IMG/VR virus record: IMGVR_UViG_3300020171_000017
Span: 48,685-112,684 of that record
Direction: 5' to 3' (one strand)
Source: a virus
Lineage: Duplodnaviria; Heunggongvirae; Uroviricota; Caudoviricetes
DNA: 64,000 nt
Shown: positions 3,596-48,779 of the stretch, piece after piece
Layout of the letters: every line of letters begins with the position of its first letter
Numbering within the stretch: position 1 is the first letter of the stretch
Position numbers and translations under genes: made by a program
The notes under the pieces: model-generated
Databases searched by the model: none
The model's input: only the letters and a program-made list of their open reading frames with translations
Told to the model about the DNA's origin: nothing

Positions 3596-6500
3596 ATGGC
3601 AAACGAAGATATATTACTTACAGTAGGCATTAGCCTTGAATCGATAAAGAAAGCCAAACAGCAGCTTATTTCTGAAATTGCTCAGATAAAAGTTCCTGAT
3701 GTTGGTGGTATTGATGATACTGTACGGTCGCTAAAAGAACTTACTAAAGAGAGACAAGCACTTAATACTGCCGCTAAATCTTCGAAACTTATCGACGCGA
3801 ATAACGTAAAATTTGCCGCTGATGTCGCTAAAGCTATTGATAAAGAAATAACTTCTACGTACAAAGCTGATGAAGCTAATAAGAAACTGGCTATTTCTAC
3901 CGCTTTCTATACGAAAGTAGCGCAAGAAGAGGGTAATACTCTTGCTAAATTAACTGCTGAAAGAAATATTTACTATAAAGCTACTGCACAAAACATTAAA
4001 TTAGACGAAAAAGGTGCCGCGCGATTAAAAGAAATAGAGTCTTTACGCCAAAAAGCAATCCAATCACAATTAACGCAAAAGCAAGATACTCCGAAAGCCG
4101 AAGAGTTCATGAAGGCTAACCAACAGGTTGAAAATCTTGCTAAAACTACCGCGTATTATTCTGAAAAGAACAAGATTATGGGCACTACTTTAAATAGCGT
4201 TACTTCAGAACTAAATGCTTATTTAAAGGTAGAAGCTGACGGTATTACATTAACCGGCGATGCTCTCGCGCAAAAAGAAAAGTTGACTACGCAGTACGCT
4301 AAATTAGCAAAAGCACAGAAAGGTTTTTTTCATGGCATAGATTTAGGCAGGTTGATGCTCTGGGCCGTAGGCTGGAAGGTAATTTACGGCGCGTTGAATA
4401 TAGTATTAAATAGTTTTGGTGAAGTATTTACTATAGTCGGTAAGGTAAATGAAGTTATTCTTCAATCAAGAATCGTTAATCAAGAGACTGCTGCTATATT
4501 TACTAAAGATTATGATCAAATGCGGAAGGCGATATTTAATTTTTCTAAAAATTCTTCTGTGTCTGTAGTACAATTAGCCAATGCATATAAAATACTCACT
4601 TATGAAGGTGCGAAACTTAGTACTTCATTAGCGGCATTACCGAATGTACGTAATCTGATGGTTATTACCGGTGAGAAAGAGAATGTCGTCGCACAGGCTT
4701 TAATTGAGACTTATGAATTGTTTGGTAATAAAGTAAGATCAGCAGGCACTGAAAGCGCTAAATTAACACGCATAACAGATATACTTGCCACTGTATTTAC
4801 GAAAGCGCATATCTCTTTGTCTGAATACCAGAATATAATGGGGTTTATTGCGCCTATAGGGTCTGAAGCAGCAGAGAGTTTCGAGTTTCTTGCTGGTATG
4901 CTTATTTTTGCTGACGCACAAATGTTAGGCGGTAGGCGCGCGGGTATGGCGCTAATGGAGACGCTTGTAGGTTTGACAGTGAATACAGGTAAGTTGTCAG
5001 AAGTATTTGGTATTACCTTTCAGCCCGGAGAAATGATTACCGTAGAAAAAGTATTGAATAAGATTAGATATCATATAAAAGATTTATCTGATCCACAAAA
5101 AAGATACTTACTGTCTAATATATTTAAAGGTTCAGCATTAGAGTTAATGATAAAAGCGCTTAAAGAAACTAACGAAGGTATTGTTGATTTAACAAAGAAT
5201 GCTGATGGATTAGGTGAAAAATTAAATGAAAGTATGAGAAAAGCACATCCTGCCACAATATTTTTTAGTAACATCTGGAAAGATATTGCTAAAAACATGG
5301 AAAAAGCTTCTACTGATGCAGGCAATGCTGCTGATGATTATCGTGAAATGGTGCGAGAGCAAGGTAAGTTACGGCGTGAACCTGCAATGGAGAGAGAGTT
5401 CCCAGAACTTAAAGCAAAAGGTTTAGAATCAAGTACTGAGTTTGGTAAATCTCCATTAGGCGCGAGTATCGGTTTTGGTAAAGAGCAGTTGGCAAACTTA
5501 AAAGAAAGTAAAGATTTATGGTCAGGTAATAATGAAAAAGTTAAAGAAATGGCAAAGAATGTTAAAGAAATGGTTAAGGCTGAATTTGTTTATACATACG
5601 AATTAAAAAGCCAATTATCTTTACTTGATAAAAAACAACAGCTAACTCTTGCTGAGGCTGCGGGAGCGTCTTTTTCTTATTTAAATCAACAAAAGATGAA
5701 TATCGCTTTAGAAGAAAGTGTGTCTTGGATTGAAGATGAATCAAAGAAACAAAAAATAATAAATGAAATTTTATCTTTAAAAGAAGCTACAGCAAAAAAT
5801 ATTTATGATGTTTTTGCCGAAAATGTTGATATTCACGAGCATGAAAAACAAATTCTAGCGTCTACTAACGAGATTCTAGCTGAGAAGTATGCTTTGCAAG
5901 TTAAGATGACCGAAGAAATTAGAGCTTTAGCCGACGATTTACAATCTAAAACCGCTGATTTCGCGAAAAATTTAATGACTGGGACTGGTAATATAAAAGA
6001 ATTTTTAAATGGAATTACAGATAGTTTTAGAACTACTTTCGCTAATAATTTAGTGCAGATGTTTGGAGAAAAAACAGGGATATTTGCGAGTATGGCGGGT
6101 ACGTTTATGTCGCCAATTGCTAAAGCTCATTATAATGGCATTCAGTCAGCAGTGCCTAGTATCATAGCCGCCCATGTAAAAGGAATTACCGATGGTATGG
6201 CTAGTGCACAAAGTGGTGGATCACCAGGTGTTGGGGCACAAGGTGCAGGTCAATTTGGTGCAATGACTGGTTTTATGGGGAATATAGGTAGTATTTTTGG
6301 AGGTCAAAAAGGAGCACAAACAGCTACCGTTTCACCAATGAAAGCAGCAGGTGGTTCTACTCAGGTACCAGTAAAACCAGCGGGAAGTAGATTAAATCTC
6401 GCGGCTGCTGGTAGAGCAGGAGGACAAGCTCTAGGTGCTGCTGGAGCTCTTTACGGAGGATACCAAGGCGTAATGGCGCAAAGAGGGCAAGGTTCTGGTA

Positions 6501-6832
6501 CTGGTGCGTTAGGTGGAGCGATGTCGGGAGCAATGGCGGGGAGTATGTTTGGTCCATGGGGTATGGCTATAGGTGCCGTAGTGGGCGGCGTAATGGGGGC
6601 GATACAGAGTGGTAAGAAAAAAAAGGACATACCTCCTGAAATAAAACAACAAACCATTGAAATTACGTCCAGACTAAACGTGAGTAACCGCGAATTGCAG
6701 ATTGTAAACAGGAATTTAGAAAATATAAGAAAAGGTTTTGAGGGTTTTATTTTTCAACGGTCCGCTTATTTTTCTGAGAGTCGTGCCAGTGAAGAGTTTG
6801 CTTCAGATAAAAGTAGAGGGTATATAGGATGA
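3596..6832 (+). CDS. tail tape measure protein
   Basis: 1078 aa, coiled-coil-rich N-terminal two-thirds, Gly/Ala-rich C-terminal region, downstream of chaperone pair. Confidence 0.8.
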   Translation: MANEDILLTVGISLESIKKAKQQLISEIAQIKVPDVGGIDDTVRSLKELTKERQALNTAAKSSKLIDANNVKFAADVAKAIDKEITSTYKADEANKKLAISTAFYTKVAQEEGNTLAKLTAERNIYYKATAQNIKLDEKGAARLKEIESLRQKAIQSQLTQKQDTPKAEEFMKANQQVENLAKTTAYYSEKNKIMGTTLNSVTSELNAYLKVEADGITLTGDALAQKEKLTTQYAKLAKAQKGFFHGIDLGRLMLWAVGWKVIYGALNIVLNSFGEVFTIVGKVNEVILQSRIVNQETAAIFTKDYDQMRKAIFNFSKNSSVSVVQLANAYKILTYEGAKLSTSLAALPNVRNLMVITGEKENVVAQALIETYELFGNKVRSAGTESAKLTRITDILATVFTKAHISLSEYQNIMGFIAPIGSEAAESFEFLAGMLIFADAQMLGGRRAGMALMETLVGLTVNTGKLSEVFGITFQPGEMITVEKVLNKIRYHIKDLSDPQKRYLLSNIFKGSALELMIKALKETNEGIVDLTKNADGLGEKLNESMRKAHPATIFFSNIWKDIAKNMEKASTDAGNAADDYREMVREQGKLRREPAMEREFPELKAKGLESSTEFGKSPLGASIGFGKEQLANLKESKDLWSGNNEKVKEMAKNVKEMVKAEFVYTYELKSQLSLLDKKQQLTLAEAAGASFSYLNQQKMNIALEESVSWIEDESKKQKIINEILSLKEATAKNIYDVFAENVDIHEHEKQILASTNEILAEKYALQVKMTEEIRALADDLQSKTADFAKNLMTGTGNIKEFLNGITDSFRTTFANNLVQMFGEKTGIFASMAGTFMSPIAKAHYNGIQSAVPSIIAAHVKGITDGMASAQSGGSPGVGAQGAGQFGAMTGFMGNIGSIFGGQKGAQTATVSPMKAAGGSTQVPVKPAGSRLNLAAAGRAGGQALGAAGALYGGYQGVMAQRGQGSGTGALGGAMSGAMAGSMFGPWGMAIGAVVGGVMGAIQSGKKKKDIPPEIKQQTIEITSRLNVSNRELQIVNRNLENIRKGFEGFIFQRSAYFSESRASEEFASDKSRGYIG

Positions 6833-8205
6833 AAATTAATATGAAAAAAATAAAAGTTTGTTGTAATTATTGTAATAAAATAATATTTACATCTAATTGG
6901 TCATTAAAAAATTATAAACATCATTTTTGTAATAATCTTTGTATGCGTAAATTTTATAAAGGTAAAAATCACCCTAGGTTTTCTAAAAAAGTATTAGTTC
7001 ATTGTAAAAATTGTAAAAAAGATATTTTAAGAAAAAAAAGCCACATAAAGAAAAATAAATTTAATTTTTGTAATTTAAAATGTAGAAGTATTTTTTATAA
7101 AATTAATCTTGGATTAAATAATCCAAGATATTGTAAAATTAAAGTTAAATGTTTATATTGTAAAAAGGTTATTTTTAGAAAACCTAGTCGAATTAAAAAA
7201 CAAAAAAATCATTTTTGTGATAAGGATTGCTTAACAAAATATCAAACTAAACAAATAAAAATTAGTTGTGATGTCTGTGGTAAACAATTATTTAGAAAAA
7301 TTTCTGATTTTAAAAAACATAAACATCATTTTTGTAATAAAAAATGTTATGGTAAATCTATTATTGGAAAAAATAATCCTAATTATAAGAATATTACAAA
7401 AATTCATATAAATAAAAAAGCAACAAAAAAAATAAAGCCTTTGATAAAATCACAAAAAAATAAAGAGGTAAAAATAAAATGTACTTGTTGTAAAAAAATA
7501 ATTTATAGAACAATTAAGCGTATAAAAAAGAATAAGAATAATTTCTGTAGTATAAAATGTTGCAATACTTTTTATAAAAATGAAAATAGTCCAAATTATA
7601 CTAAAATAAAAGTACTTTGTAAACAGTGTAAAAAGATTTTATTTAAAAATATTTCTTGTGTAAAAAGACAAAAACATCAATTTTGTGATAGAGTTTGTTT
7701 TAGTAAATGGCGGGATAAGGTATCAAAAGTTAAAGTTATTTGTGCTTGTTGTAAACATACTTTTTTAAGAAAAAAATGCCATTTAAAAAAATTCAAAAAT
7801 TATTTTTGTAGTAATAAATGTAGAAATATTTTTTTTAAAGATCATTTACCTTTTGTTCCTACACAATTAACAGGCAAAGATCACCCAGGTTGGAATAATG
7901 GTTCATCATTTGAACCGTATGGTCTAGATTTTAATAATAATTTGAGAGAATTTATTCGTAAACGTGATAAGTATATTTGCCAAAATCCTAATTGCGGCAT
8001 ACCTGAAAAAGAATGTTTTAAAGATTTAATTTCACATCATATCGACTATAATAAAAGGAATAATCATCCAATAAATTTAATAGCCTTGTGCCAAAGTTGT
8101 CATAGTAAAAGTAACTTTAGCAGAGGTTATTGGAAAACTCTTTACGAAGATATACAGATTAAACGTAAAGTACATATGTTAGAAAGAGCTGCAGAACAAC
8201 CTTAA
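6829..8205 (+). CDS. HNH endonuclease with seven N-terminal tandem Cys-rich (zinc-ribbon-like) repeats
   Basis: 7 repeats of C-x2-C-K-x-I/L-F-R-K...K-K-x-K-x-x-F-C-x3-C (~45 aa each); C-terminal HNH motif ...SHHIDYNKRNNHPINLIALCQSCHSK; extreme Lys/Asn/Ile codon bias versus neighbours. Confidence 0.7.
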   Translation: MKINMKKIKVCCNYCNKIIFTSNWSLKNYKHHFCNNLCMRKFYKGKNHPRFSKKVLVHCKNCKKDILRKKSHIKKNKFNFCNLKCRSIFYKINLGLNNPRYCKIKVKCLYCKKVIFRKPSRIKKQKNHFCDKDCLTKYQTKQIKISCDVCGKQLFRKISDFKKHKHHFCNKKCYGKSIIGKNNPNYKNITKIHINKKATKKIKPLIKSQKNKEVKIKCTCCKKIIYRTIKRIKKNKNNFCSIKCCNTFYKNENSPNYTKIKVLCKQCKKILFKNISCVKRQKHQFCDRVCFSKWRDKVSKVKVICACCKHTFLRKKCHLKKFKNYFCSNKCRNIFFKDHLPFVPTQLTGKDHPGWNNGSSFEPYGLDFNNNLREFIRKRDKYICQNPNCGIPEKECFKDLISHHIDYNKRNNHPINLIALCQSCHSKSNFSRGYWKTLYEDIQIKRKVHMLERAAEQP

Positions 8206-13272: not shown

Positions 13273-13728
13273 ATGGACATTTCATTATTAAATAAAATTC
13301 AAAGTTACATTAAATCAGGCATTGACATCAGCGACCTGATAAAAAACCAAGATATCCGTAATTTAGACCTGTCCTACGCTCTTATTTCTGATTTCAATGT
13401 CTCGAAACAAGATATTTCAGGCTGTAGATTAATTTGTGCGAAGATACAGAAGGCACAGATGATCAAGACTACAGCGCGTAATGTCCAATTTAATTACGCT
13501 GATATGACAGATGCGGATATATCGTATATTGACGCTAGAGATTCTAATTTTTTGAACACTAACTGTACTCGCACAATCTATAAATACGCCGATCTACGTG
13601 GCTGTAACTTTTGTAAAGCTACCATAACGTTAGGTCCAGAGTACGGGTATAAAGCTAAGGTAAACAATACCTTAATGAATTTATTGGATAAGATTTGGGA
13701 AATAACGCCTGATGCCGATAAAAAATAA
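13273..13728 (+). CDS. pentapeptide-repeat protein
   Basis: repeated A(D/N)(L/M)xx-type pentads (DISGCRL..NVQFNYADMTDADISYIDARDSNFLNTNCTRTIYKYADLRGCNF). Confidence 0.5.
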   Translation: MDISLLNKIQSYIKSGIDISDLIKNQDIRNLDLSYALISDFNVSKQDISGCRLICAKIQKAQMIKTTARNVQFNYADMTDADISYIDARDSNFLNTNCTRTIYKYADLRGCNFCKATITLGPEYGYKAKVNNTLMNLLDKIWEITPDADKK

Positions 13729-14248
13729 ATCAAAACCAACTATTATCGCAATCTTTTCTTTAATCGCAGGCATTTTAGGCGGTTTAAGCGGTGCAGATAA
13801 TTCATCTAAATTCTTTAGACGAATCGCATTACCGTTATCGCTGTACATCATTGGTCTTATATACCAAAACTATTATTCGGTATTTATATTAGCTTGGTGT
13901 GGCATACTTTATATTGGTTATGGTGTGCCTGATGAAACCGACAAAGGTTCAGTTTTAGGCAGGTTCTTCTATAAAATTTGTAAGAGAAATCAATGGTGGA
14001 CTAATTTTATGGTTAAACTTTGTTTAGGCATACTTTTTAGTTTAGTATTAATACCAATAGCGATATTTAATAAATCTATAAACTTACTTTGGATTACTGC
14101 TCCTTTAGCGGTACTTTCACAAGTACTTTTTGGCTCTTTAATTAAAGGGCTTGGCGAAATAACTTTATTTAAACGTAAAATACTTATTATCGAAATTGCT
14201 AGATATGCAACTTTATTTTTAGCTGGTGCGATACAACTAACCACATGA
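13712..14248 (+). CDS. integral membrane protein (4 predicted TM helices)
   Basis: hydrophobic 178-aa ORF overlapping upstream stop. Confidence 0.45.
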   Translation: MPIKNKSKPTIIAIFSLIAGILGGLSGADNSSKFFRRIALPLSLYIIGLIYQNYYSVFILAWCGILYIGYGVPDETDKGSVLGRFFYKICKRNQWWTNFMVKLCLGILFSLVLIPIAIFNKSINLLWITAPLAVLSQVLFGSLIKGLGEITLFKRKILIIEIARYATLFLAGAIQLTT

Positions 14249-16158
14249 AAACATACGAAAATTTATTTCCTCAGATAATTCGTGAGATCGAAAAACGTTC
14301 TGGAAAAGTTGGAGCTACTACTGGTTCGCGTTTCTCTGTACAGCCTGGCGGCGAAGGCGGGTCTCTAGATTCGCGCGCATTAGCCGAAATTATAACAGGT
14401 ATCGCTTCTGATTTTGCTATTCTAATCAAACCACGTATTATTTCAGGTTTCGATGTTACTGCTACAACACCGCCTTCGGCTACTGTTAATGTCTCTTTAG
14501 GTACAGGCACATCTAACGGCAAGAAATGGGAAATCGCCGCTGATAGTACTTTAAATATACCTTTAGATTCGACAACTTATGTTTTTTATATCACGGTGTA
14601 TAACAATGCTTTTGAAATCAGCAGGTCACATGATGATACTAAATGCGAGATATGCAGGATTATAGTGCCGCAGCCAGGCACAACATCTGCAATTGAAGAT
14701 GATAAACCTAGTGATAGTTATAACGGCTATATAGTCTCGGCGAAAGACGCGGTATACGACGAAGATCAGGAATTTGACGACGCTTCAGTAGAAAAATTGA
14801 GAGACGTAATTGGTGCGGTGTTAGCCGATAATTTAATAGGTAATATCAAACTATCAGAAAATTTAAAGATAACTAACACGCAAGGTACATTAGAATTAGA
14901 TAGTAAAGAAATTAGAATTTTAAGTGCAAATGAAACTACTCTTGCAAAGTTTAACCGCAACGGCACTTTCTTCTATGATGATAATGGCGTAGAAATAGCC
15001 AAGTTTTCTACTACAGGTGCTAGAATCGGGAATATAGAAGTTTTAACAAATGCTCTAAAATCTAGCGATTATGTCGCAGGTACTACAGGTTTTAAAATAT
15101 CCGATAGTGGTATAGTAGATTTCTTATCGGGCACTATCGGTGGTATTACAATTGTGAATAACTCATTGCGTTCTAGTAACTTTGTATCTGGTACATTATT
15201 AGGAGCGGGTTTTGAAATAGCTAGCGATGGTAGTGCGGAATTTCAAAATATTAAAGCTAGAGGAAGAATTGCTACCTCAGTTTTCGAGAAAGACACCATA
15301 TCCAGCGTTGGCGGTAATTTATTAGTTATGGACTCAGATTCGTTAAGCATTGATATGACCTCTAGAGAAGATTCTATTTTAAATATCGTTGGTGATACTA
15401 CTTTTCCTACTGGATCTATTTTACGAATAAAAGACGGTATTGATGATGAATGGCTAGAAGTAACTGCAGTCAACGGTACTGCTTATACCGTTACTAGAGA
15501 TAAAGCATCCCTCTATACACTAAATAATAATCCAGTATGGACAAAAGGCACATGTGTAGTCAATTATGGTACGTCTGGGAAGGGTGGGATATTTATGACA
15601 TCTTCAGAAAGTAATTCACCGTATATGCATTTTTTTACCCACTTAGGTTCTCCTTGGTCTACTACTACGGCAAAAACACGAATAGGAAATTTAGATGGTG
15701 TGGCAGGCTGTTCTGGGTATGGTATTTGGGCAGGTAGTGGCTATTTAGGTGAGTTGTCAGTTATAGATTTGATTACCATATCGGCAGAAGGTAGTATTAG
15801 AAGTAACGCCCTGGGTAGTTATCCATATGTAGAATTTTCTCAATCGGGATTACAGTTAAGGAATAGTGATGTGGGGGGAACTTATTCTACAGGATTATAT
15901 AGCACGGACAAGTATGGGAGTGGGGCTTTAGTTTGGATAATGAATGCTACATACGGTATTCCTTGGATGGAAATGAAAGAACCAAGTAGTGGGGGCTATA
16001 CAGTTCCTAGTATGCGATTTTTCAATAGAGACGTTGACCCAACAAGTGCAGCAGAAGTTGGTGATTTAGCAGTAGTGGGTGGTAAATTAAAAATATGTAC
16101 AGTTGCAGGTGATCCTGGTGCAGCAACCTGGACAGTGGTGGGTGCACAAACAGTATAA
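14245..16158 (+). CDS. putative tail fibre protein
   Basis: 637 aa, Gly/Ser/Thr-rich with repeated beta-rich segments; ATGA overlap. Confidence 0.5.
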   Translation: MKTYENLFPQIIREIEKRSGKVGATTGSRFSVQPGGEGGSLDSRALAEIITGIASDFAILIKPRIISGFDVTATTPPSATVNVSLGTGTSNGKKWEIAADSTLNIPLDSTTYVFYITVYNNAFEISRSHDDTKCEICRIIVPQPGTTSAIEDDKPSDSYNGYIVSAKDAVYDEDQEFDDASVEKLRDVIGAVLADNLIGNIKLSENLKITNTQGTLELDSKEIRILSANETTLAKFNRNGTFFYDDNGVEIAKFSTTGARIGNIEVLTNALKSSDYVAGTTGFKISDSGIVDFLSGTIGGITIVNNSLRSSNFVSGTLLGAGFEIASDGSAEFQNIKARGRIATSVFEKDTISSVGGNLLVMDSDSLSIDMTSREDSILNIVGDTTFPTGSILRIKDGIDDEWLEVTAVNGTAYTVTRDKASLYTLNNNPVWTKGTCVVNYGTSGKGGIFMTSSESNSPYMHFFTHLGSPWSTTTAKTRIGNLDGVAGCSGYGIWAGSGYLGELSVIDLITISAEGSIRSNALGSYPYVEFSQSGLQLRNSDVGGTYSTGLYSTDKYGSGALVWIMNATYGIPWMEMKEPSSGGYTVPSMRFFNRDVDPTSAAEVGDLAVVGGKLKICTVAGDPGAATWTVVGAQTV

Positions 16159-19950: not shown

Positions 19951-20194
19951 TGCAATTGCAGTAGTAATAATACCGTTTATAGTTGCAGGTTTAAAAAAGT
20001 TAAAATTACCTTCTAAATTCGCACCGATCGCAGCATTTGTTATTGCGATTATCATCGTTGCAGGTGGTAAGTTTCTAGGGTATGAACTTGATACACAAAC
20101 AATTCAACAGGCGTTACTTAAGGCGTTAGGTATTGCAGGCGTTTCGGTATTAGGTTATGACCAGTTAAAGAAGTTAACTGAACCAAAAGTGTAA
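19943..20194 (+). CDS. holin-like membrane protein
   Basis: 83 aa, two hydrophobic helices, charged C-terminus; RBS AAGGAGGACTATAATG. Confidence 0.45.
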   Translation: MFDAIAVVIIPFIVAGLKKLKLPSKFAPIAAFVIAIIIVAGGKFLGYELDTQTIQQALLKALGIAGVSVLGYDQLKKLTEPKV

Positions 20195-20367
20195 TGACTA
20201 CAATAATCAGTGGTATTTTACAGCTAATCTTGTTGATTTTTTCAACTTGGTTAGAAAGCAATAAAGAAAAGAAAGCTAAAAAGAAAGAAATTGTTGATGC
20301 GTTAGCCGAGGGGATTAAGAATAACGACCCAAGCGCTATTACTGTAGCATTAACAAAACTAAAATGA
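20195..20367 (+). CDS. i-spanin-like single-pass membrane protein (57 aa, below ORF-track cutoff)
   Basis: MTTIISGILQLILLIFSTW N-terminal TM helix; stop overlaps downstream lipoprotein start (Rz/Rz1-like arrangement). Confidence 0.35.
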
Positions 20368-20576
20368 TAAAAAATTATATAATAATTGTAATTACGCTGT
20401 TTCTTTTGTTAATAACAGGCTGCGCCAGAGTTATAGTGTTTTATCCTATCGAAAAATCTGATTTTTTTCGTATCACAAAAGATACGAAGGTAGGTAATCT
20501 GACCGCTGAAAAAGATGGCTGGTTCATGAGCGATCTGTACTTAACAGAAGTAGCTGGCGTTAAAAAAGTAAAGTAG
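20364..20576 (+). CDS. o-spanin-like lipoprotein
   Basis: signal peptide + lipobox LITGC. Confidence 0.45.
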   Translation: MIKNYIIIVITLFLLLITGCARVIVFYPIEKSDFFRITKDTKVGNLTAEKDGWFMSDLYLTEVAGVKKVK

Positions 20577-20585
20577 TTACTACAA

Positions 20586-20640
20586 AAACAGCTATATTTT
20601 TATGCATAATATATTAAGCATAATTATATGGCTGTTTTTA
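20586..20640. terminator. bidirectional hairpin terminator between convergent plus and minus gene blocks
   Basis: imperfect inverted repeat AAAAACAGCTATAT...ATATGGCTGTTTTT with T tracts both sides. Confidence 0.35.
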
Positions 20641-21261
20641 TATTTCTATTTCTACTGGTTTATTCACTAACTGATATGCTTCGTTCATTAAGCTAGCGTT
20701 AATGAAAGTAGTATGTTCGTTTTTAAAAATGCCATAGGAAAAATGTATATGGCCAAAAAAATGGAATCGTGGTTTTATGAAGTTAATTCTTTCTAATAAT
20801 CTAGGACAACCAACATTGTTTTTAGTGAAAACTGCATAATCTAAAATCCCGAACGGCGGGCCATGCGTGATAATTATGTCGCTGAATACGGATATTTGAT
20901 CCCAATATTTTGATATCTTATCTCGATCGCACATGAAAAACCAATTCTGGAACTCCGGCGTTATCGGTGATCCCCAGAATTTCAAGCCTCGGATTTCACA
21001 GCCAGAGTTCTCAAGATAAATAGCATTGGTGAGTTGCTTTTGGATAGACTTCATACCGCATTGGAAAGCATATCGATCATGATTGCCGCAAATACAAACC
21101 TTATAGTCAAAAGGTTGTTTCTCTAACCACCGATTAAAACGCCACAAATCTGCCTGGTTCCATATTCCTATGTCTCCGCAAATGATTAATATGTCTGCAG
21201 GCCTTAAGTCTAAAAGATAGTAGTCGCCATGAAGATCGGAAATTATTGTGAGTTTAATCAT
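20638..21261 (-). CDS. calcineurin-like metallophosphoesterase
   Basis: motifs DLHGD, GDIG, GNHD, GHIH in canonical order. Confidence 0.7.
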   Translation of the reverse strand: MIKLTIISDLHGDYYLLDLRPADILIICGDIGIWNQADLWRFNRWLEKQPFDYKVCICGNHDRYAFQCGMKSIQKQLTNAIYLENSGCEIRGLKFWGSPITPEFQNWFFMCDRDKISKYWDQISVFSDIIITHGPPFGILDYAVFTKNNVGCPRLLERINFIKPRFHFFGHIHFSYGIFKNEHTTFINASLMNEAYQLVNKPVEIEI

Positions 21262-21274
21262 TGTAATTTTATAG

Positions 21275-21345
21275 TGGCTATAATTGGAATTAAACCAATA
21301 CTCGAAACTTATGAAACTTTTGTTCTGTCGTTAAACTATATAGCT
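21275..21345 (-). tRNA. tRNA-like gene, weak anticodon stem (loop could read CAU or UCA)
   Basis: acceptor AGCTATA/TATAGCC, perfect T-arm ATTGG-TTTAATT-CCAAT; anticodon stem poorly paired. Confidence 0.3.
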
Positions 21346-22130: not shown

Positions 22131-22372
22131 TTAAAATCCTTTCTTTTTAATGCCCAATTAGAATATCAGACTCCAATTATTTTTCGTTGTAGGCGAAGTG
22201 CCATAACCAATTAGGCGAACAGGGCAAAATTTCACGTGCAGAGAGTTAAACTTTGCAACTTAATTAATTTATAGAGCCATTTTTGCAATGATCAATTGCT
22301 ATTCACAACTCAAAAATAAAAAAAGTCAGGCACTCAATTGGTATGCATCCCTTATGCCTACGCTAAATTAAA

Positions 22373-22772
22373 GTGGATCTGGTGGGAATCGAACCCACGT
22401 CCTAAAATATCCAAATATAAAACCCTACATACATAGCTTATTATTTTCACCTTTACATTAATGATTGAATAAGCACGATCATCAATGTGCAAATCTTTAT
22501 TTGATTACTTCTATCGCAAAGATTAATCAATAGAATTAGCATAATAAATGACCTTCTTTAGCTCTTATGCCGAACTGAAGAAGGTGCTTTACCTAAATTT
22601 AGGCAAAGACTGGGTCCCCAGCAAAGATAGGTGCTACAATATCTTCAGCCGAAGCTAATAACCGCTGATTTTCGTCTGCGTTTATTTTTGTGCAAGATTT
22701 TTTACACAGCCAACTTGCGTCTGTGATATGCGTTTTATATTCGACCTATTTCAGTCTAACCCGATCAGACCC
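22373..22772 (-). ncRNA. ssrA: tmRNA-like (ssrA-like) gene, tentative
   Basis: ~400 nt without ORF; 5' GGGTCTG pairs with 3' CAGATCC adjacent to T-arm GTGGG-TTCGATT-CCCAC; internal ...AAAAAUAAAC GCA GAC GAA AAU... resembles canonical resume region, open tag frame ADENQRLL...VFA-UAA. Confidence 0.45.
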
Positions 22773-22801
22773 AAATATATTCAAAGAACAGTGTTAAATA
22801 G

Positions 22802-22888
22802 CTGTGGCGGTTGGATTCGGACCAACAATGAGAATTTCTTCTAATAGCTTAACAGGCTATCCCCTGCAACCAATTCGGGTACACCACA
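22802..22888 (-). tRNA. type-II-like tRNA (87 nt, long variable arm), identity unresolved (anticodon loop CUGUUAA)
   Basis: acceptor TGTGGTG/CGCCACA, anticodon stem ATAGC/GCTAT, variable-arm hairpin AGAA-GAAA-TTCT, T-arm GTTGG-TCCGAAT-CCAAC. Confidence 0.4.
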
Positions 22889-22893
22889 ATATC

Positions 22894-23124
22894 TTATTTT
22901 TTTCTATCTTCCATTAATTCACCAATAAACAATATTATATCACTTAAACAATCTTTATTCCAAATAGTATCATAATTTGGAAAGAATGCGTAACATCTCC
23001 AATTCACGTACCATTTTATAATCCCTAACCGATCACTGTGCATCTTCGACACCACTTCATAAACATTTGTTTTTTCTTTCTTCTCTAAAAGATTAAATGT
23101 TAAGTATTTTGATTGCATATTCAT
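22894..23124 (-). CDS. hypothetical protein (76 aa)
   Basis: small ORF, minus-strand operon. Confidence 0.3.
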   Translation of the reverse strand: MNMQSKYLTFNLLEKKEKTNVYEVVSKMHSDRLGIIKWYVNWRCYAFFPNYDTIWNKDCLSDIILFIGELMEDRKK

Positions 23125-23359: not shown

Positions 23360-23436
23360 TGGTGCCACGACTCAGTGTCGAGCTGAGATCTCTGCGCCTT
23401 CAACGCAGCACTTTTGACCAGTTAAGTTATCGTGGC
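23360..23436 (-). tRNA. tRNA-Phe (GAA), CCA encoded
   Basis: acceptor GCCACGA/TCGTGGC-A-CCA, D-stem ACTT/AAGT, anticodon stem CTGCG/CGCAG loop TTGAAGG, T-stem CTCAG/CTGAG. Confidence 0.7.
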
Positions 23437-23715
23437 GTACATCTTATCAATTACCAACTGCATCTTCTGCCTCACAGAAGCGTTATCAGTTACTAAAACT
23501 ATTTCTTCAGGCAGATATTGTTGGTTTTGCTCTAACCAACAAAGTATATCATAACCTGTATATTCTTTGCCGTTATAGAAATCAGCCAAATCATGATCTA
23601 AGAGAAGGAGATTATATGGTTGTGATTGCAACGCCAATACGCCCTCAATATAAGACCTTGCTGTATGGGTCGCTACTTCTAAATTTCTTTTGTCATCAAT
23701 TAATAGTATGTTCAT
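23422..23715 (-). CDS. stand-alone response-regulator receiver (CheY-like) domain protein
   Basis: MNILLIDDKRN...LLLLDHDL...GYDIL pattern typical of REC domains; 97 aa. Confidence 0.45.
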   Translation of the reverse strand: MNILLIDDKRNLEVATHTARSYIEGVLALQSQPYNLLLLDHDLADFYNGKEYTGYDILCWLEQNQQYLPEEIVLVTDNASVRQKMQLVIDKMYATIT

Positions 23716-24877: not shown

Positions 24878-25396
24878 TTATTCATTCTCAATCCCCAAGT
24901 ATTTGCACCACAATTCGTGAATAAATCCTAACTTCATTTTTAAGATCATCTTAAACCCATGTGGTTTAGTTGGTATTTTTAACAACTTCATACCTGCTTC
25001 TTTTGGTGTTCTATTATCTTTAATACCATTACAAATATTACATGCCGTCGTACAATTTTCCCAAGTTGTTTTCCCGCCCTGAGATTCTGGCAAAACATGG
25101 TCTATAGTCAATTTTCTAGGCTCGAATTTCACGCCGCAATACGAACAAGTAAAATTATCGCGAATATGTATATTATGTTTTGAGTAAGAAACAAAAGCTA
25201 TTTTTTCAAACGCTACTCGCACATATCGTTTCAATCTTATGACTGCAGGAATTTTCATAGTAAGTGAAACACTATGTACCTCCTGCTCATAAGAGGACTC
25301 AAGAATAGCTTTTTCTAAATAAATTAAATTAATAGATGATTGCCAACTACAAAACCCAAGGAACGTAAAATCTTGATTCAAAATTAAGACACGCAC
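24878..25396 (-). CDS. HNH endonuclease
   Basis: CSYCGVKFEPRKLTIDHVLPESQGGKTTWENCTTACNICNGIKDNR = HNH/McrA-type motif. Confidence 0.65.
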   Translation of the reverse strand: MRVLILNQDFTFLGFCSWQSSINLIYLEKAILESSYEQEVHSVSLTMKIPAVIRLKRYVRVAFEKIAFVSYSKHNIHIRDNFTCSYCGVKFEPRKLTIDHVLPESQGGKTTWENCTTACNICNGIKDNRTPKEAGMKLLKIPTKPHGFKMILKMKLGFIHELWCKYLGIENE

Positions 25397-25399
25397 TTC

Positions 25400-26155
25400 T
25401 TACCCTTTCCTTTCTTTCCAAAACTCTTCTAATAACTCTATTTGTAATTTATTTATCGCTTCTTGATCAGCACCATATTGTAAATCTGATTGCACATATG
25501 CCAAATCAACTAATTTCTCTATCTCTTCAGCTTTATTCAATACCCAAGTCAAATCATATTTACCTAATTTCACATCCCGTACTAAATTATGCTGCGGTAA
25601 TGGAAATGTTAAAGCCTTTTCAGTTAATAATTGGAGACATTCTAACAAAAGCCTAATCAAATGGGATCCGAACTTAACATCATATCCAAACTTTAATGCT
25701 AATTCTTTTCTACCTGTCATATTATCACGTTTAATTTCTAACTTTTCTCTTTGCGAATACGAGTATCCTTTAAAAGTATGATACGCTTTTTTAGACAAAA
25801 ACAAATGCCTATTCTCAATCAATTTATTAGCAAACTTATCTCTATATAATACGCAATTTTCTGGTACATAAAGGAACTCTATAACATTGGGATTATTTGC
25901 CATTGCTAATGGTATAAATTTCGTTAACGCATAGACCATATAATCAGTATCGCCTTTTTGATTACGAACCGATTTAGAAATCTTCTCAGACAACTCAACT
26001 TGTTCTACATTTTTAATACCTAGTACATAGTCTTTATCAGGTATGAATATGCCGCCTAAATCTTCGTCTGAAGTTTCTGTTCTCGTCCCATATAAATTCG
26101 AGCCGATTCTGATTTTATATATCGTATTTCGTAACGCCATATCTCGTTCTTGCAT
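25400..26155 (-). CDS. Pol-beta-superfamily nucleotidyltransferase
   Basis: IGSNLYGTRTETSDEDLGGIF = GS-x10-SD-x-D NTase signature followed by ~150-aa helical domain. Confidence 0.55.
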   Translation of the reverse strand: MQERDMALRNTIYKIRIGSNLYGTRTETSDEDLGGIFIPDKDYVLGIKNVEQVELSEKISKSVRNQKGDTDYMVYALTKFIPLAMANNPNVIEFLYVPENCVLYRDKFANKLIENRHLFLSKKAYHTFKGYSYSQREKLEIKRDNMTGRKELALKFGYDVKFGSHLIRLLLECLQLLTEKALTFPLPQHNLVRDVKLGKYDLTWVLNKAEEIEKLVDLAYVQSDLQYGADQEAINKLQIELLEEFWKERKG

Positions 26156-28290: not shown

Positions 28291-28716
28291 TTAGAATAAA
28301 AGATTTTGTTCTAACGCTAAATTATATATGTCTTGCATAGGAATTCGACAAAAATTAGGTATTTCTCTAAATTCGTACATAGAAGAATAGATTAACTGAA
28401 TAGCTTCAAATAACCCCACATTTCTCGCAATTAAAGCTAAAAGAGCTATATGTGGACTTCTAGTCACACAACATTGACAATGTATAAATATATCATCAGT
28501 CCCTTTTAACTTTTCATATAATTCATATAAAGGAATATTCATTTTATATAAACTATCACCATCTTTGTAATCTATTTCAATATCGTTATTTCTAAGCATA
28601 CTACATCTTTGATCTGGGTAATCATTTCGCCATATGTGGATTGTTCGCATAATTGAATTACAACATGATTCTTTGTCCCCTAACCAAATATTTTTATTTA
28701 GATAAATTTTTTTCAT
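28291..28716 (-). CDS. cysteine phosphatase (dual-specificity/PTP-like P-loop)
   Basis: IHCQCCVTRSP matches HC-x5-R-S/T catalytic loop; 141 aa. Confidence 0.5.
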   Translation of the reverse strand: MKKIYLNKNIWLGDKESCCNSIMRTIHIWRNDYPDQRCSMLRNNDIEIDYKDGDSLYKMNIPLYELYEKLKGTDDIFIHCQCCVTRSPHIALLALIARNVGLFEAIQLIYSSMYEFREIPNFCRIPMQDIYNLALEQNLLF

Positions 28717-33485: not shown

Positions 33486-33752
33486 TTATTCCACTATCAT
33501 CCAATCTTTCGCAAACAAATCACCGTCAGTCACAATCCATTGGTAATTGTTACCGTCGGCTTTGTGCAACGATAACGTATCTTTATTCAAAAATCCATAA
33601 AGTTTAGTGTCGTCCCATTCGAACCTAGTGACCTTTTTGCCGCGCATTATCGCTTTTATCGCTTCTGGAAAACTATGGCTGTCTTTAGTTTTTGGAGTTT
33701 TATTTAATGTCACAAAAATCTCCTTTCTATTCCGTTCTGACCGGTAAAGCAA
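33486..33752 (-). CDS. hypothetical protein (88 aa)
   Basis: ORF in compact operon. Confidence 0.4.
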   Translation of the reverse strand: MLYRSERNRKEIFVTLNKTPKTKDSHSFPEAIKAIMRGKKVTRFEWDDTKLYGFLNKDTLSLHKADGNNYQWIVTDGDLFAKDWMIVE

Positions 33753-34812
33753 TATAAATATAGCCGTTAATTCTGATCACCCCTGGTTTATCAGAAGCAA
33801 CAACTTCAAATTCAATTACCTCATCTTTTAATACTTTCAATACATCAATAAGGTAAGCAGGGTTAAAACCGATTACTACCGATGTACCGCTATATTCTAT
33901 ATCTATCTCTTCTACGAAATCACCGACATCAGGCGTTACTTTAGAAATGATTAATTTATTCGGCATAAACTCGAATTTCGTGGCCTGATAATCTGGCGTA
34001 ACAAGTAACGCCGCTTTTTTTACCGCTTGTAAAAAAGCGTCGCGGTTAATCTTGGCTTTTTGTTCTACCGGCGCAGGTATTACGCCTTCATAATTCGGAA
34101 ATTCACCTTCAATTAATCGTGATATAATTTGTGTTTTACCGAAATCGAATAACGCCTGGTTTTCCGCGAAAATTAACGAAACTTCTTTATTAGAAGCGAT
34201 GTTCACTTGGATTTCAACCGCGGTTTTAATCGGTATGATTATGGTTTTTTCTTGGTTAAATGTGATAGGTTTTTCTATTACCGCTAATTTCTGGCCGTTG
34301 GTCGCGACCATAATAAGTTTATCTTTATTGATTTTGCATAAAATACCGTTAAGCGTATATCGTGCTTCGTCTGTAGACGCGGCGAAGGCAGTAAGCTGCA
34401 ACATCTCAGCCAAAATCGATGCATCTAATTTTAATGCTTCTGTTTGATCAAATTCAGGTAGTTTTGGGAATTCTTCGTAAGAAATCCCCATAATTCTGAA
34501 TTTGCATTTCGATGCGGATATTTTAATCTGATTCTTTTCGCTTACTTCAATATTAATTGTATCGTCAGCGATAGAAGAAATGATCTCATAAAATTTCTGT
34601 GCCGGCACGGTAACAGCACCGTCAATTTGCGATTCGACTTCAAGAGTTGAGGATATACTGATATCAAGATTTGTTGCGGTTAATTTTAGGGTATTAGATT
34701 TAGCTTCAAGCAAAATGTTGGAAAGGATGGGTAAAGCGACACGTGTACCGATAGCTCCCTGAACAGTTTGTATTGCGGAAATTAGTTTAGATTTATTAGT
34801 TGTAAGTTGCAT
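33727..34812 (-). CDS. dnaN: DNA polymerase III beta sliding clamp
   Basis: 361 aa; N-terminus MQLTTNKSKLISAIQTVQGAIGTRVALPILSNILLEA typical of DnaN; three-domain length. Confidence 0.75.
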   Translation of the reverse strand: MQLTTNKSKLISAIQTVQGAIGTRVALPILSNILLEAKSNTLKLTATNLDISISSTLEVESQIDGAVTVPAQKFYEIISSIADDTINIEVSEKNQIKISASKCKFRIMGISYEEFPKLPEFDQTEALKLDASILAEMLQLTAFAASTDEARYTLNGILCKINKDKLIMVATNGQKLAVIEKPITFNQEKTIIIPIKTAVEIQVNIASNKEVSLIFAENQALFDFGKTQIISRLIEGEFPNYEGVIPAPVEQKAKINRDAFLQAVKKAALLVTPDYQATKFEFMPNKLIISKVTPDVGDFVEEIDIEYSGTSVVIGFNPAYLIDVLKVLKDEVIEFEVVASDKPGVIRINGYIYIALPVRTE

Positions 34813-37830: not shown

Positions 37831-38373
37831 TTATCCTACTAAACTTCTCTCCCAACGTATTTTATTCGCCTTGGATTGCGGTAAATTACGATCTCTATTG
37901 TTCCAATCTACAAAAGCAGTTTCATTACCGATATGCCAACCACTTGCTTTATAAATCGTACCAGTATGTACTTCTGTATCTTGATATGAAATTAAACGTG
38001 TTATTTCTGGCATCTTCTTCTTAATTAGTTTAATCATAACACTTATCATTCTACTAGCAGTATTCTTAGGGCATTTCTCAGATATAGCCAATCTTCTTAA
38101 CTCTAATATCTTTTTGCCATTTTTAAATCTGTTTTGCGCTACAGGACTTGACCAAATACCTACAGCTAAACATATATTGTCGAAATACGCACCATAACAA
38201 ACATAATGCGTATTTCTAGTAACATTAGAACAATCTATTATGGGTAATCTTGAGTGCCATAAAGCATTCATACGGCAAGCGTTTTGTGGTCTTATCTCTC
38301 GCACTATCATTTCAAGCGGAGAGGTCGGAATCGAACCGCCATTAATATTTTGGAATAAATCTTGTTCTACCAT
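37831..38373 (-). CDS. hypothetical protein (180 aa)
   Basis: ORF; no family recognised. Confidence 0.4.
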   Translation of the reverse strand: MVEQDLFQNINGGSIPTSPLEMIVREIRPQNACRMNALWHSRLPIIDCSNVTRNTHYVCYGAYFDNICLAVGIWSSPVAQNRFKNGKKILELRRLAISEKCPKNTASRMISVMIKLIKKKMPEITRLISYQDTEVHTGTIYKASGWHIGNETAFVDWNNRDRNLPQSKANKIRWERSLVG

Positions 38374-38390
38374 TAAACTATCTCCGCAAT

Positions 38391-42651: not shown

Positions 42652-42889
42652 TTATTACTCCTTATTATTTAGTTAAGTTACCCTAACCTTACTACAATTT
42701 CTCCCATCCACACTGACTCTCAGAGAGGAAAAGAACTTGGGAAGCATTCTTTACATCTTTTCGAGCTACCACGCTCAGAGAATTCAGTTACTAGCTGTGT
42801 AGTCAATTGTTTAACCTGCTAAGATGATTGGTCTTCTCTTTCGCAAGCCCCTATTTTTAAATAGGGGTTATTGACTTCTCCTTTCTTTT
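42652..42889 (-). ncRNA. candidate omega-RNA of IsrB copy A
   Basis: 238-nt ORF-free region immediately upstream of isrB, conserved 5' segment in copy B, perfect hairpin GCCCCTATTTTTAAATAGGGGT. Confidence 0.35.
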
Positions 42890-44898: not shown

Positions 44899-45780
44899 TT
44901 ATATTCCACAATTGCACTTTTGATACAACATTCCAACCAAATTATAACATCCTATCGTTTCTTTACAAATCGCAACCTGTTTACATTGAAGATTTTGTTT
45001 AAACCATTTATACATCTCAACTCGTTTTTCTAGCGGTAACCTTAATTTATGGTCGCCGTCTTTATGGTCTACGCCATATTTAAAAACATCTCGATCTTTT
45101 TTTAGATAAAATAAATTATTAAAGAACCGTAATGAACCTAGTGTTATTCTTTCCGGTTTAAGAAAATCATTAAGCACATCTACTACCGGTTGATACTCGG
45201 TTTTGAAATCTTTGATTTCGATTATCGGGTCTATTCTAATTCTCACATGCTGATTTTGTTTCTTAAGCCTATACGCCGCTGCAATTCTATCGAAAGGGCC
45301 AGGTGCGCCTGTTTCGTATAAATCTGCCACAGTCTGGCTGTTGACCGAAAAACTGAAAATCGTTTGGTTATATACCTTATTATAAGCATTAGTCTCGATT
45401 TCTTTCGGTATAACATTGTTTTTCGTGACAAAAAGAAGTTTATGCTTTGTCTGCGTTTCAAATAAATCCATTACATCAGCAAGTAATTTATTCTCAATCT
45501 CCATAAAACTATCGCTTAATTCCCCTGCATTTAATACCGACGGCCTTGTGGTCTTTGTCAACCATTTTTGTACTTCATTTAAAACTTTTAACGATGAATA
45601 TACTACAGGATCTTTTGTATACCGAAATGTTAAACTCAAGAAACAATAACTGCATTTCGGCTCAAACACGCAATTATTCGCCCATGCGAATACATAGAAA
45701 GATGGACAGATTATATCTTCTGCCTTATTGGTGAATTGATGTATGAACTTTGATTTTCGGATTCGATGAACTAAAGGCAT
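44899..45780 (-). CDS. hypothetical protein, possible Fe-S cluster binding (C-x5-C-x2-C)
   Basis: ANNCVFEPKCSYCF near N-terminus; 293 aa. Confidence 0.35.
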   Translation of the reverse strand: MPLVHRIRKSKFIHQFTNKAEDIICPSFYVFAWANNCVFEPKCSYCFLSLTFRYTKDPVVYSSLKVLNEVQKWLTKTTRPSVLNAGELSDSFMEIENKLLADVMDLFETQTKHKLLFVTKNNVIPKEIETNAYNKVYNQTIFSFSVNSQTVADLYETGAPGPFDRIAAAYRLKKQNQHVRIRIDPIIEIKDFKTEYQPVVDVLNDFLKPERITLGSLRFFNNLFYLKKDRDVFKYGVDHKDGDHKLRLPLEKRVEMYKWFKQNLQCKQVAICKETIGCYNLVGMLYQKCNCGI

Positions 45781-48600: not shown

Positions 48601-48779
48601 CGGTTAACCACCTTAATTTGCCTTAAATTTAAGCCGCAATTGGCACAAAACTGCCAGTTTAAGCCTGTTGCCTGCTTGCATATAGTACATAGCCGTAACG
48701 CTTGATCTTGCACACTGCCACACTGATGGCAGAAATTCGCGGTATCGGCTAGATTGTAGGTGCAATTGGCGCAGGTCAT
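48597..48779 (-). CDS. double zinc-ribbon protein (60 aa)
   Basis: CANC...CHQCG...CTICK...CANCG. Confidence 0.4.
   Translation of the reverse strand: MTCANCTYNLADTANFCHQCGSVQDQALRLCTICKQATGLNWQFCANCGLNLRQIKVVNR

Follow-up and report, generated by a model that had tools for sequence, protein, structure and literature searches.

Transfer-messenger RNA (tmRNA) is encoded not only by bacteria but also by phages, mycobacteriophages of the Bxz1 type being among the carriers. Described phage tmRNAs include complete genes that lie in large phages together with tRNAs and translation-related genes, and the tags they specify are often non-canonical. A tmRNA has been recorded in 402 of 18,146 phage genomes, about 2.3 % (PMC9004378). 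Two-piece forms occur in marine myophages such as Melnitz and the pelagimyophages (PMC9004378), huge phages carry a tmRNA together with SmpB (PMC7162821), and the tmRNA of phage G encodes the tag AKLNITNNELQVA (PMC12484599). The gene analyzed here lies on the minus strand, at positions 22373-22772 of a 64,000-nucleotide (nt) stretch of the virus record IMGVR_UViG_3300020171_000017 (positions 48,685 to 112,684 of that record; hereafter the window). With the known phage genes it shares completeness, the location in a large phage beside tRNAs and translation-related genes, and a non-canonical tag, but it is in one piece, whereas the Melnitz tmRNA is in two. The initial annotation of the window had recognized the tmRNA from the raw sequence and had described phage-encoded tmRNA as uncommon. 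The remark agrees with the published frequency (PMC9004378), but uncommon is not the same as new: phage tmRNAs are already known, and the one distinctive trait here is a conserved, long tag that does not end in two alanines. The best-supported reading, which is very probably correct, is that the window encodes a functional one-piece tmRNA of the phage that carries out ordinary trans-translation.

Among bacterial tmRNAs, E. coli SsrA and the Rfam family RF00023 have in common with the window tmRNA a tRNA-Ala-like domain with a G3·U70 pair, helix 2 (H2), four pseudoknots (PK1 to PK4), a stop codon in helix 5 (H5), and a GCA resume codon that follows an A-rich tract with U at -5 and A at -4. The window tag starts with A-D-E-N, similar to the (A)NDEN core of the E. 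coli tag. However, the window tmRNA is encoded by a phage and inside a tRNA array, and its tag comprises 26 residues instead of about 10-11 and ends in VFA, not in LAA. The ssrA genes of Clostridia, and of Lachnospiraceae within them (tags ADENLAYAA and ADENYAYAA), share the 17-mer UAAACGCAGACGAAAAU and likewise do not encode the CCA end, but the similarity found by blastn is confined to the resume region and the tRNA-like domain, and their tags are of 9-11 residues with an AA ending. The tags of Mycoplasma, known from work by Gur and Sauer in 2008, are reportedly about 27 residues long, have ends of the ...FAFA type and are degraded by Lon and not by ClpXP. They resemble the phage tag in their length and in a hydrophobic C-terminal region without the AA ending, and offer a precedent for a tag re-targeted to another protease, but there is no sequence similarity between them and the phage tag.

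Architecture of the tmRNA gene

The two checks proposed at the outset, a search with the Rfam tmRNA models and an ARAGORN run, were both strongly positive. ARAGORN calls a tmRNA with exactly the coordinates 22373-22772 (minus strand), and RF00023 matches 22371-22772 (minus strand) with 142.5 bits, against a gathering score of 47 bits, and an E value of 8.3e-56, covering model positions 1-374 of 374. The element is a complete, full-length one-piece tmRNA (ssrA); it displays every testable defining feature of RF00023 and is a member of that family. A two-piece, circularly permuted tmRNA was also considered and is ruled out by the collinear, full-span match to the one-piece model. The description of the region as free of open reading frames (ORFs) holds as well, no ORF of 60 amino acids (aa) or more overlapping it; the longest is a 44-aa ORF with a TTG start.

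The same matches bear on two explanations in which the region would not be a tmRNA gene of its own. Degenerate tRNAs, or a tRNA-like structure arisen by chance, could be envisaged in an AT-rich region with tRNAs on its flanks; but the match to the tmRNA model has an E value of 8e-56 and the Rfam scan gave no tRNA-model match within 22373-22772, so that the chance of this explanation is negligible. The region might otherwise be an att-site remnant, that is, a partial ssrA copy acquired by a prophage on integration into the ssrA gene of its host. It is known that ssrA is a common integration site and that prophages often carry 3' fragments of it (PMC9004378). The full-length match, from model position 1 to 374, refutes such a remnant. 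Moreover, the copy is located inside a tRNA array, the same array position is found in several phages, and no integrase was detected among the scanned ORFs of the window, which were the large ones and those flanking the tmRNA; this origin is highly improbable.

The canonical tmRNA architecture was placed by hand on the sequence, RNA position 1 corresponding to window position 22772 (Table 1). The tRNA-like acceptor and the canonical T-arm, both described in the initial annotation, are present on the minus strand exactly where it had located them. The acceptor stem has 7 base pairs (bp), and both the G3·U70 pair, which is the established identity element for alanine, and the discriminator A73 are read directly. 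The RNA has the standard one-piece architecture with four pseudoknots, and its sole large departure from the Rfam consensus is an insertion of 49 nt in the tag-coding region. The predicted resume segment GCA-GAC-GAA-AAU was also confirmed: the resume codon GCA occupies RNA positions 94-96 and is directly preceded by the A-rich tract AAAAAUAAAC, in which positions -5, -4 and -1 (E. coli numbering) are U, A and C, the same bases that E. coli has. The gene does not encode the CCA end, its 3' end reading ...UCC-A-CUU. The bacterial ssrA genes that were fetched also lack it, so that an encoded CCA is no defining trait of the family.

Selection on the fold and on the tag peptide

Relatives of the window tmRNA were located through homologues of the CCA-adding enzyme of the array and through the conserved 17-mer at the resume codon. 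Five homologous tmRNAs were found on other large phage contigs (L001, L004, L377, L378 and L379; Table 1), and the pairwise identity among the six sequences is 55-80 %. In five of the six, tRNA-Asn precedes the tmRNA within a large tRNA array, and in three of those five a tRNA-Val begins only 4-7 nt past the tmRNA, a spacing that implies processing from a polycistronic precursor. Searches among GenBank phages by megablast and blastn with the region and with the tmRNA gave no match, nor did tblastn with the tag at E<=10. When metagenome contigs were scanned with the degenerate pattern ACGCNGAYGARAAYNNNCGNYTNYT at least 119 loci were obtained, and a mid-tag pattern gave at least about 120 loci in IMG/VR, in both cases with no tmRNA among the matches listed; an exact 22-mer gave 0 matches in IMG/VR. 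No close cultured relative of the clade was found. The window tmRNA belongs to a previously undescribed, uncultivated clade of phages of 135-215 kb.

A plain MAFFT alignment of the tmRNAs suffered from register shifts that broke several helices, and the fold was therefore analyzed both by a local helix search and by a formal pair count with controls. Each of the 14 helices can be formed, with different bases, in all six sequences, and this includes the two stems of every pseudoknot. The pairs G1-C72, G2-C71 and G3·U70 and the discriminator A73 are invariant in the six, while acceptor pairs 4-7 change in a compensatory manner, and the T-arm stem covaries in the relatives (CGCGG/CCGCG, CCGGC/GCCGG, CUGGG/CCCAG). 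Helix 2, which corresponds to helices 2-4 of the pair count, is paired in 84-97 % with both sides changed in 17 of its 25 pairs; PK1 (helix 5 of the count) is 100 % paired with compensatory changes in three of five pairs, and PK4 (helices 12 and 13) has them in 13 of 17.

The pair count was made on a sequence-only MAFFT alignment of the six tmRNAs with the structure derived from the window copy, and was compared with controls in which the pairing partners were slid by ±1-3 and with 500 shuffles. The fraction of paired cells was 83.9 %, against 37-45 % with slid partners and 71.8±1.0 % in the shuffles; this figure is biased, as the structure was taken from one of the sequences, and the double-sided changes are free of that bias. 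Changes on both sides were found in 59 of 100 pairs (slid partners 13-17, shuffles 29±3.5), and the covariation score was 0.50 (0.09-0.15 and 0.256±0.019, respectively). None of the 500 shuffles reached the observed value in any of the three measures. The strong covariation across the six tmRNAs shows that the canonical fold is under selection.

Some relatives have peculiarities of their own. The T-loops of L377 and L379 are non-canonical (UAUCGUAA-like and AGCAUUC, respectively, versus UUCGAUU), the tmRNA of L377 is missed by ARAGORN and in L379 the program sets the resume codon wrongly, while Rfam finds both; L379 is also the only member of the family with an encoded CCA.

The tag of the window tmRNA, as given by ARAGORN, is ADENQRLLASAEDIVAPIFAGDPVFA-stop, of 26 residues and ending in PVFA, and the tags of the six tmRNAs, aligned by the homologous resume codon, have 26-28 codons. 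A tag longer than usual and with an atypical end had been noticed in the window; it turns out to be a conserved trait of the six phage tmRNAs. No stop interrupts the tag frame in any of the six, while both other frames contain stops in all of them, and pairwise differences at codon positions 1, 2 and 3 number 83, 76 and 183. In 14 of 26 aligned columns either one residue is kept or the variation is restricted to similar residues (L/I, I/M/V, F/L/V, A/V). The constrained columns include R6, L7, A11, I14, V15, F19 and A26, and most of them use more than one codon; the consensus reads A-D/S-E-N-x-R-L-L/I-x-x-A-x-x-I-V-x-x-x-F-...-A(-x-I). The open frame, the closure of the other two, the third-position bias and the use of several codons argue that the tag is translated and constrained as a peptide. 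Hence, to judge from its codons, the tag is under purifying selection in six phage lineages.

These data also bear on whether the gene could be a decaying passenger, acquired from a bacterium and no longer in use. Phages do pick up pieces of host ssrA (PMC9004378), and both the non-canonical ending of the tag and the odd T-loops of L377 and L379 would suit such an origin. However, six lineages that are only 55-80 % identical keep every helix by compensatory changes and maintain the tag frame open with substitutions biased to the third position, and in the window copy, which reaches 142.5 bits, the T-loop is canonical. The covariation and the codon evidence largely refute decay, which is thus very unlikely. 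The six divergent copies offer a clean comparative handle on selection acting on both a fold and a tag, among genes for tRNA maturation and RNA repair.

The tags are acidic, with net charges from -1 to -5, and their hydrophobic positions 7, 8, 11, 14, 15, 18 and 19 are compatible with an amphipathic helix. The hydrophobic moment exceeds the shuffle mean in the six tags, although the fractions of shuffles that equal or surpass the observed value (0.013-0.21) are individually weak, and the test is only suggestive. The tags of the window and L377 end in VFA, those of the remaining four in A-x-I (A-[TVH]-I). A stop codon has taken the place of the x codon in the window lineage, where the ancestral TAG is still in frame two codons further on.

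Proposed trans-translation and the reading of the tag

The tmRNA would be transcribed from the minus strand within the tRNA array, most likely together with the tRNA-Asn located 28 nt upstream. RNase P would cut the 5' end of the precursor, and the 3' end would be trimmed and receive its CCA, probably from the CCA-adding enzyme of the phage. By the identity rule, G3·U70 and the discriminator A would make the RNA a substrate for the alanyl-tRNA synthetase (AlaRS) of the host. Together with SmpB, presumably that of the host, and EF-Tu, the RNA would occupy the vacant A site of ribosomes that had stalled on mRNAs either broken or without a stop codon; translation would then resume at the GCA codon (22679-22677), add the tag and end at the UAA in helix 5, and the ribosome would be freed. 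The gain for the phage would probably be a sustained availability of ribosomes during infection, a benefit that fits the surrounding kit of tRNAs, CCA-adding enzyme, RlaP and cREC proteins. Such a kit would buffer translation against RNA damage or shut-off in the host.

Several observations weigh against this proposal. A tblastn search with E. coli SmpB gave no match at E<=10 in the window, which comprises 64 kb out of the 135 kb or more of the genome, and the function of the tmRNA hence hinges on its fit with the SmpB, AlaRS and EF-Tu of the host. The C-terminus of the tag varies within the six-member family, and neither VFA nor A-x-I provides the two terminal alanines that ClpX recognizes in canonical tags. 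As to expression, promoter-like sites such as the one upstream of tRNA-Asn are not more numerous in the region than expected by chance. Immediately past the 3' end of the tmRNA, a stem with a U-run after it may be a terminator, but its folding z-score is not significant.

A phage RNA of this type could also act mainly as a decoy or modulator, binding SmpB, AlaRS or ribosomes of the host and thereby blocking or retuning its trans-translation, or else sensing stalled ribosomes, and only secondarily, if at all, serve the phage in rescue. The lack of a phage SmpB in the window and of a canonical degron end in the tag would agree with such a role, and regulatory links between tmRNA and phage development have been cited (PMC7162821). 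A pure decoy, however, needs no conserved translated peptide, whereas the tag shows selection at the peptide level, and the full resume-codon context and the stop in H5 have been retained. Hence, a role of this kind is unlikely, and trans-translation is the preferred reading.

Selection on the peptide implies that the tag does something beyond supplying a stop codon. It is not of the canonical ClpXP degron type, which has about 8-15 residues and a hydrophobic end with Ala-Ala, as in YALAA or LAYAA. Most likely, judging from these features, the tag serves as a signal for degradation or recognition that is read in another way than the canonical ...[YL]AA degron of ClpXP. By analogy with Mycoplasma and Lon, a different protease or adaptor reading the tag would be the most economical guess. 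A wider proposal, that the acidic tag of 26-28 residues is specific to the phage and not a copy of that of the host, that it routes rescued polypeptides away from ClpXP and that the tmRNA forms part of a translation survival kit, is, taken as a whole, rather doubtful. A tag specific to the phage could direct the polypeptides to another protease or adaptor or to a phage-encoded reader, or could protect them from degradation. Were the proposal true, the kit would consist of the tRNA array, the CCA-adding enzyme, RlaP and cREC and, in one sister lineage, its own RNase P RNA, and it would keep the phage translating after RNA-targeting defences or shut-off in the host had damaged tRNAs and tmRNA. 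If, moreover, the tag differs from that of the host, it would be a case in nature of ribosome rescue whose output a virus has re-programmed.

Genomic surroundings, host and sister lineages

By its gene content the window derives from a tailed phage. In addition to the tape measure protein it encodes an HNH endonuclease, a baseplate-like protein, a primase-helicase of 1036 aa, a β-clamp, a Dam methylase and a spore-photoproduct-lyase-like protein, with a GC content of about 34 %. At about 20000-21300 the genes change strand and the GC skew changes sign, the cumulative GC skew peaking at about 20 kb; the switch separates a structural module on the plus strand from a tRNA and replication module on the minus strand.

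Table 1. Features of the tmRNA, of its genomic surroundings and of the related contigs, with positions in the sequence named in the first column
Sequence	Feature	Positions	Strand	Details
Window	Acceptor stem, 5' strand GGGUCUG	22766-22772	minus	RNA 1-7; direct reading
Window	Helix 2 (H2a-c), 5' strand	22726-22756	minus	RNA 17-47; Rfam alignment
Window	Pseudoknot 1, CACAG/CUGUG and GCAAG/CUUGC	22692-22725	minus	RNA 48-81
Window	Tag frame	22599-22679	minus	resume GCA 22679-22677, UAA 22601-22599; 26 sense codons, ADENQRLLASAEDIVAPIFAGDPVFA
Window	Helix 5	22587-22608	minus	RNA 165-186; UAA stop at top of stem-loop; Rfam, hand reading
Window	Pseudoknot 2	22538-22584	minus	RNA 189-235; helices 8 and 9 of pair count
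Window	Pseudoknot 3	22492-22535	minus	RNA 238-281; helices 10 and 11, 100 % and 85 % paired
Window	Pseudoknot 4	22436-22488	minus	RNA 285-337; helices 12 and 13, 85 % and 95 % paired
Window	Helix 2 (H2a-c), 3' strand	22400-22432	minus	RNA 341-373; Rfam alignment, hand reading
Window	T-arm GUGGG-UUCGAUU-CCCAC	22382-22398	minus	RNA 375-391; direct reading and Rfam
Window	Acceptor stem, 3' strand CAGAUCC, and discriminator A (22374)	22374-22381	minus	RNA 392-398, A399; direct reading
Window	7-bp stem AGGCAUA...UGUGCCU, then U-run	22312-22360	minus	just 3' of tmRNA
Window	Promoter-like TTGGAA-18-TGnTATAAT	22934-22963	minus	upstream of tRNA-Asn and tmRNA; consensus match only
Window	tRNA-Asn(GUU)	22801-22888	minus	28 nt upstream of tmRNA
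L001	tmRNA			IMG/VR contig IMGVR_UViG_3300027675_000004, 175 kb; RF00023 137.5 bits; tag ADENTRLLAEANAIVAHVFADAPVVATI-stop
L004	tmRNA			IMG/VR contig, 215 kb; RF00023 128.3 bits; tag ADENSRLLNSANEIVSPMFAE-SVLATI-stop
L377	tmRNA	15374-15772	plus	RF00023 106.6 bits; tag ADENQRLLASANSIVAPIFANAPVFA-stop
L378	tmRNA			RF00023 123.1 bits; tag ADENTRLLAEANAIVEPIFADAEAFAVI-stop
L379	tmRNA	13643-14043	plus	RF00023 96.7 bits; tag ASENDRLIAEANAIVAHVFVDAPVFAHI-stop
Window	Tape measure protein	3596-6832		phage structural gene
Window	Metallophosphatase	20638-21261	minus	in array region
Window	tRNA, Rfam only	21275-21345	minus	48.1 bits
Window	cREC domain protein (cREC_REC)	23422-23715	minus	array
Window	HNH endonuclease	24878-25396	minus	array
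Window	RlaP nucleotidyltransferase	25400-26155	minus	array
Window	CCA-adding enzyme, 525 aa	26711-28288	minus	PolyA_pol head, RNA-binding and HD; in array, 4 kb from tmRNA
Window	DSPc-like, weak match	28291-28716	minus	array region
Window	β-clamp	33727-34812	minus	
Window	tRNA, Rfam only	38316-38387	minus	30.0 bits
Window	RRXRR ORF, 339 aa	41632-42651	minus	first copy
Window	HEARO/ωRNA match (RF02033)	42672-42875	minus	37.9 bits, gathering score 83, E 2.9e-4
Window	Spore-photoproduct-lyase-like (PF20903)	44899-45780	minus	replication module
Window	RRXRR ORF, 339 aa	62954-63973	minus	second copy
L001	RNase P RNA, bacterial type A, 263 nt	7803-8065	plus	between tRNA-Asp and tRNA-Ser of array; RF00010 112.2 bits, gathering score 100, E 1e-35
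L377	tRNA-Asn, 89 nt	15089-15177	plus	

The tRNA array extends on the minus strand from 21.3 to 30.4 kb, and the window has 18 tRNAs called by ARAGORN plus two found by Rfam only. The second of the latter is separated from the array by 8 kb; an ORF of 180 aa (37831-38373) overlaps it with its 5' end. The tmRNA had been described as embedded in this array, and it does lie between tRNA-Asn on one side and tRNA-Arg on the other. The tRNA-Asn(GUU) and the tmRNA are probably co-transcribed. This tRNA-Asn is unusual for its kind, with 88 nt, a long variable arm like that of class II and a G discriminator. L377, the closest relative, has a similarly long one, while those of L001, L004 and L378 are of normal length (74-76 nt); a derivation of the 88-nt form from tRNA-Ser(GCU) is not obvious.

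Most tRNA genes of the array likewise lack an encoded CCA, and the phage CCA-adding enzyme is the likely source of the 3' CCA for them and for the tmRNA. In L376 an enzyme 89 % identical has 446 aa and is followed by a separate, overlapping ORF of 79 aa; in the window, judging from the lengths (446 + 79 = 525), the two appear to have been fused into the 525-aa enzyme. RlaP, cREC and CCA-adding enzymes are among the RNA-repair and counter-defence genes of jumbo phages (PMC7824862). The relatives L380 and L382 add an RNA ligase and Thg1 to the genes of the RNA-repair type.

As to the host, the best but tentative lead is Candidatus Omnitrophota, suggested by the β-clamp, which shares 52-56 % identity with DnaN of dozens of metagenome-assembled genomes of this phylum. 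The phage clade thus appears linked to a phylum with almost no characterized viruses. The 17-mer of the resume region is identical in many tmRNAs of Lachnospiraceae and other Clostridia, and 92 of 120 genome loci fetched with it hold tmRNAs of the Clostridia type. An origin from Clostridia was nevertheless downgraded: the specific likeness of the RNA to those genes does not go beyond the 17-mer, E. coli too has A(N)DEN as its tag core, and the β-clamp points to Omnitrophota; the shared 17-mer may be ancestral or convergent and not evidence of descent.

One sister lineage, L001, carries an RNase P RNA in its tRNA array. Its conserved regions CR-I (GAGGAAAGUCC) and CR-V (ACAnAACCnGGCUUA) are intact, while the P13/14 and P18 regions are deleted; L002 and L003 also carry an RNase P RNA. 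In the window none was detected in the syntenic gap at E<=10 or window-wide at E<=0.01, and GAGGAAAGUCC was absent at one mismatch or fewer; none was found either in the relatives L004 and L376-L382. No report of a phage-encoded RNase P RNA was found in the literature searched, and this RNA of L001 may be more novel than the tmRNA itself.

Two further items of the window are of note. The spore-photoproduct-lyase-like gene (PF20903) of the replication module is an unusual cargo, and a poor match for a non-sporulating host lineage. The two RRXRR ORFs, of IsrB/IscB type and without an HNH domain, share 88 % identity. A HEARO/ωRNA match below threshold directly precedes the first, and the ωRNA of the second copy would lie past the end of the window. 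To judge from this arrangement, the pair looks like an OMEGA-type element present in two copies in the phage genome.

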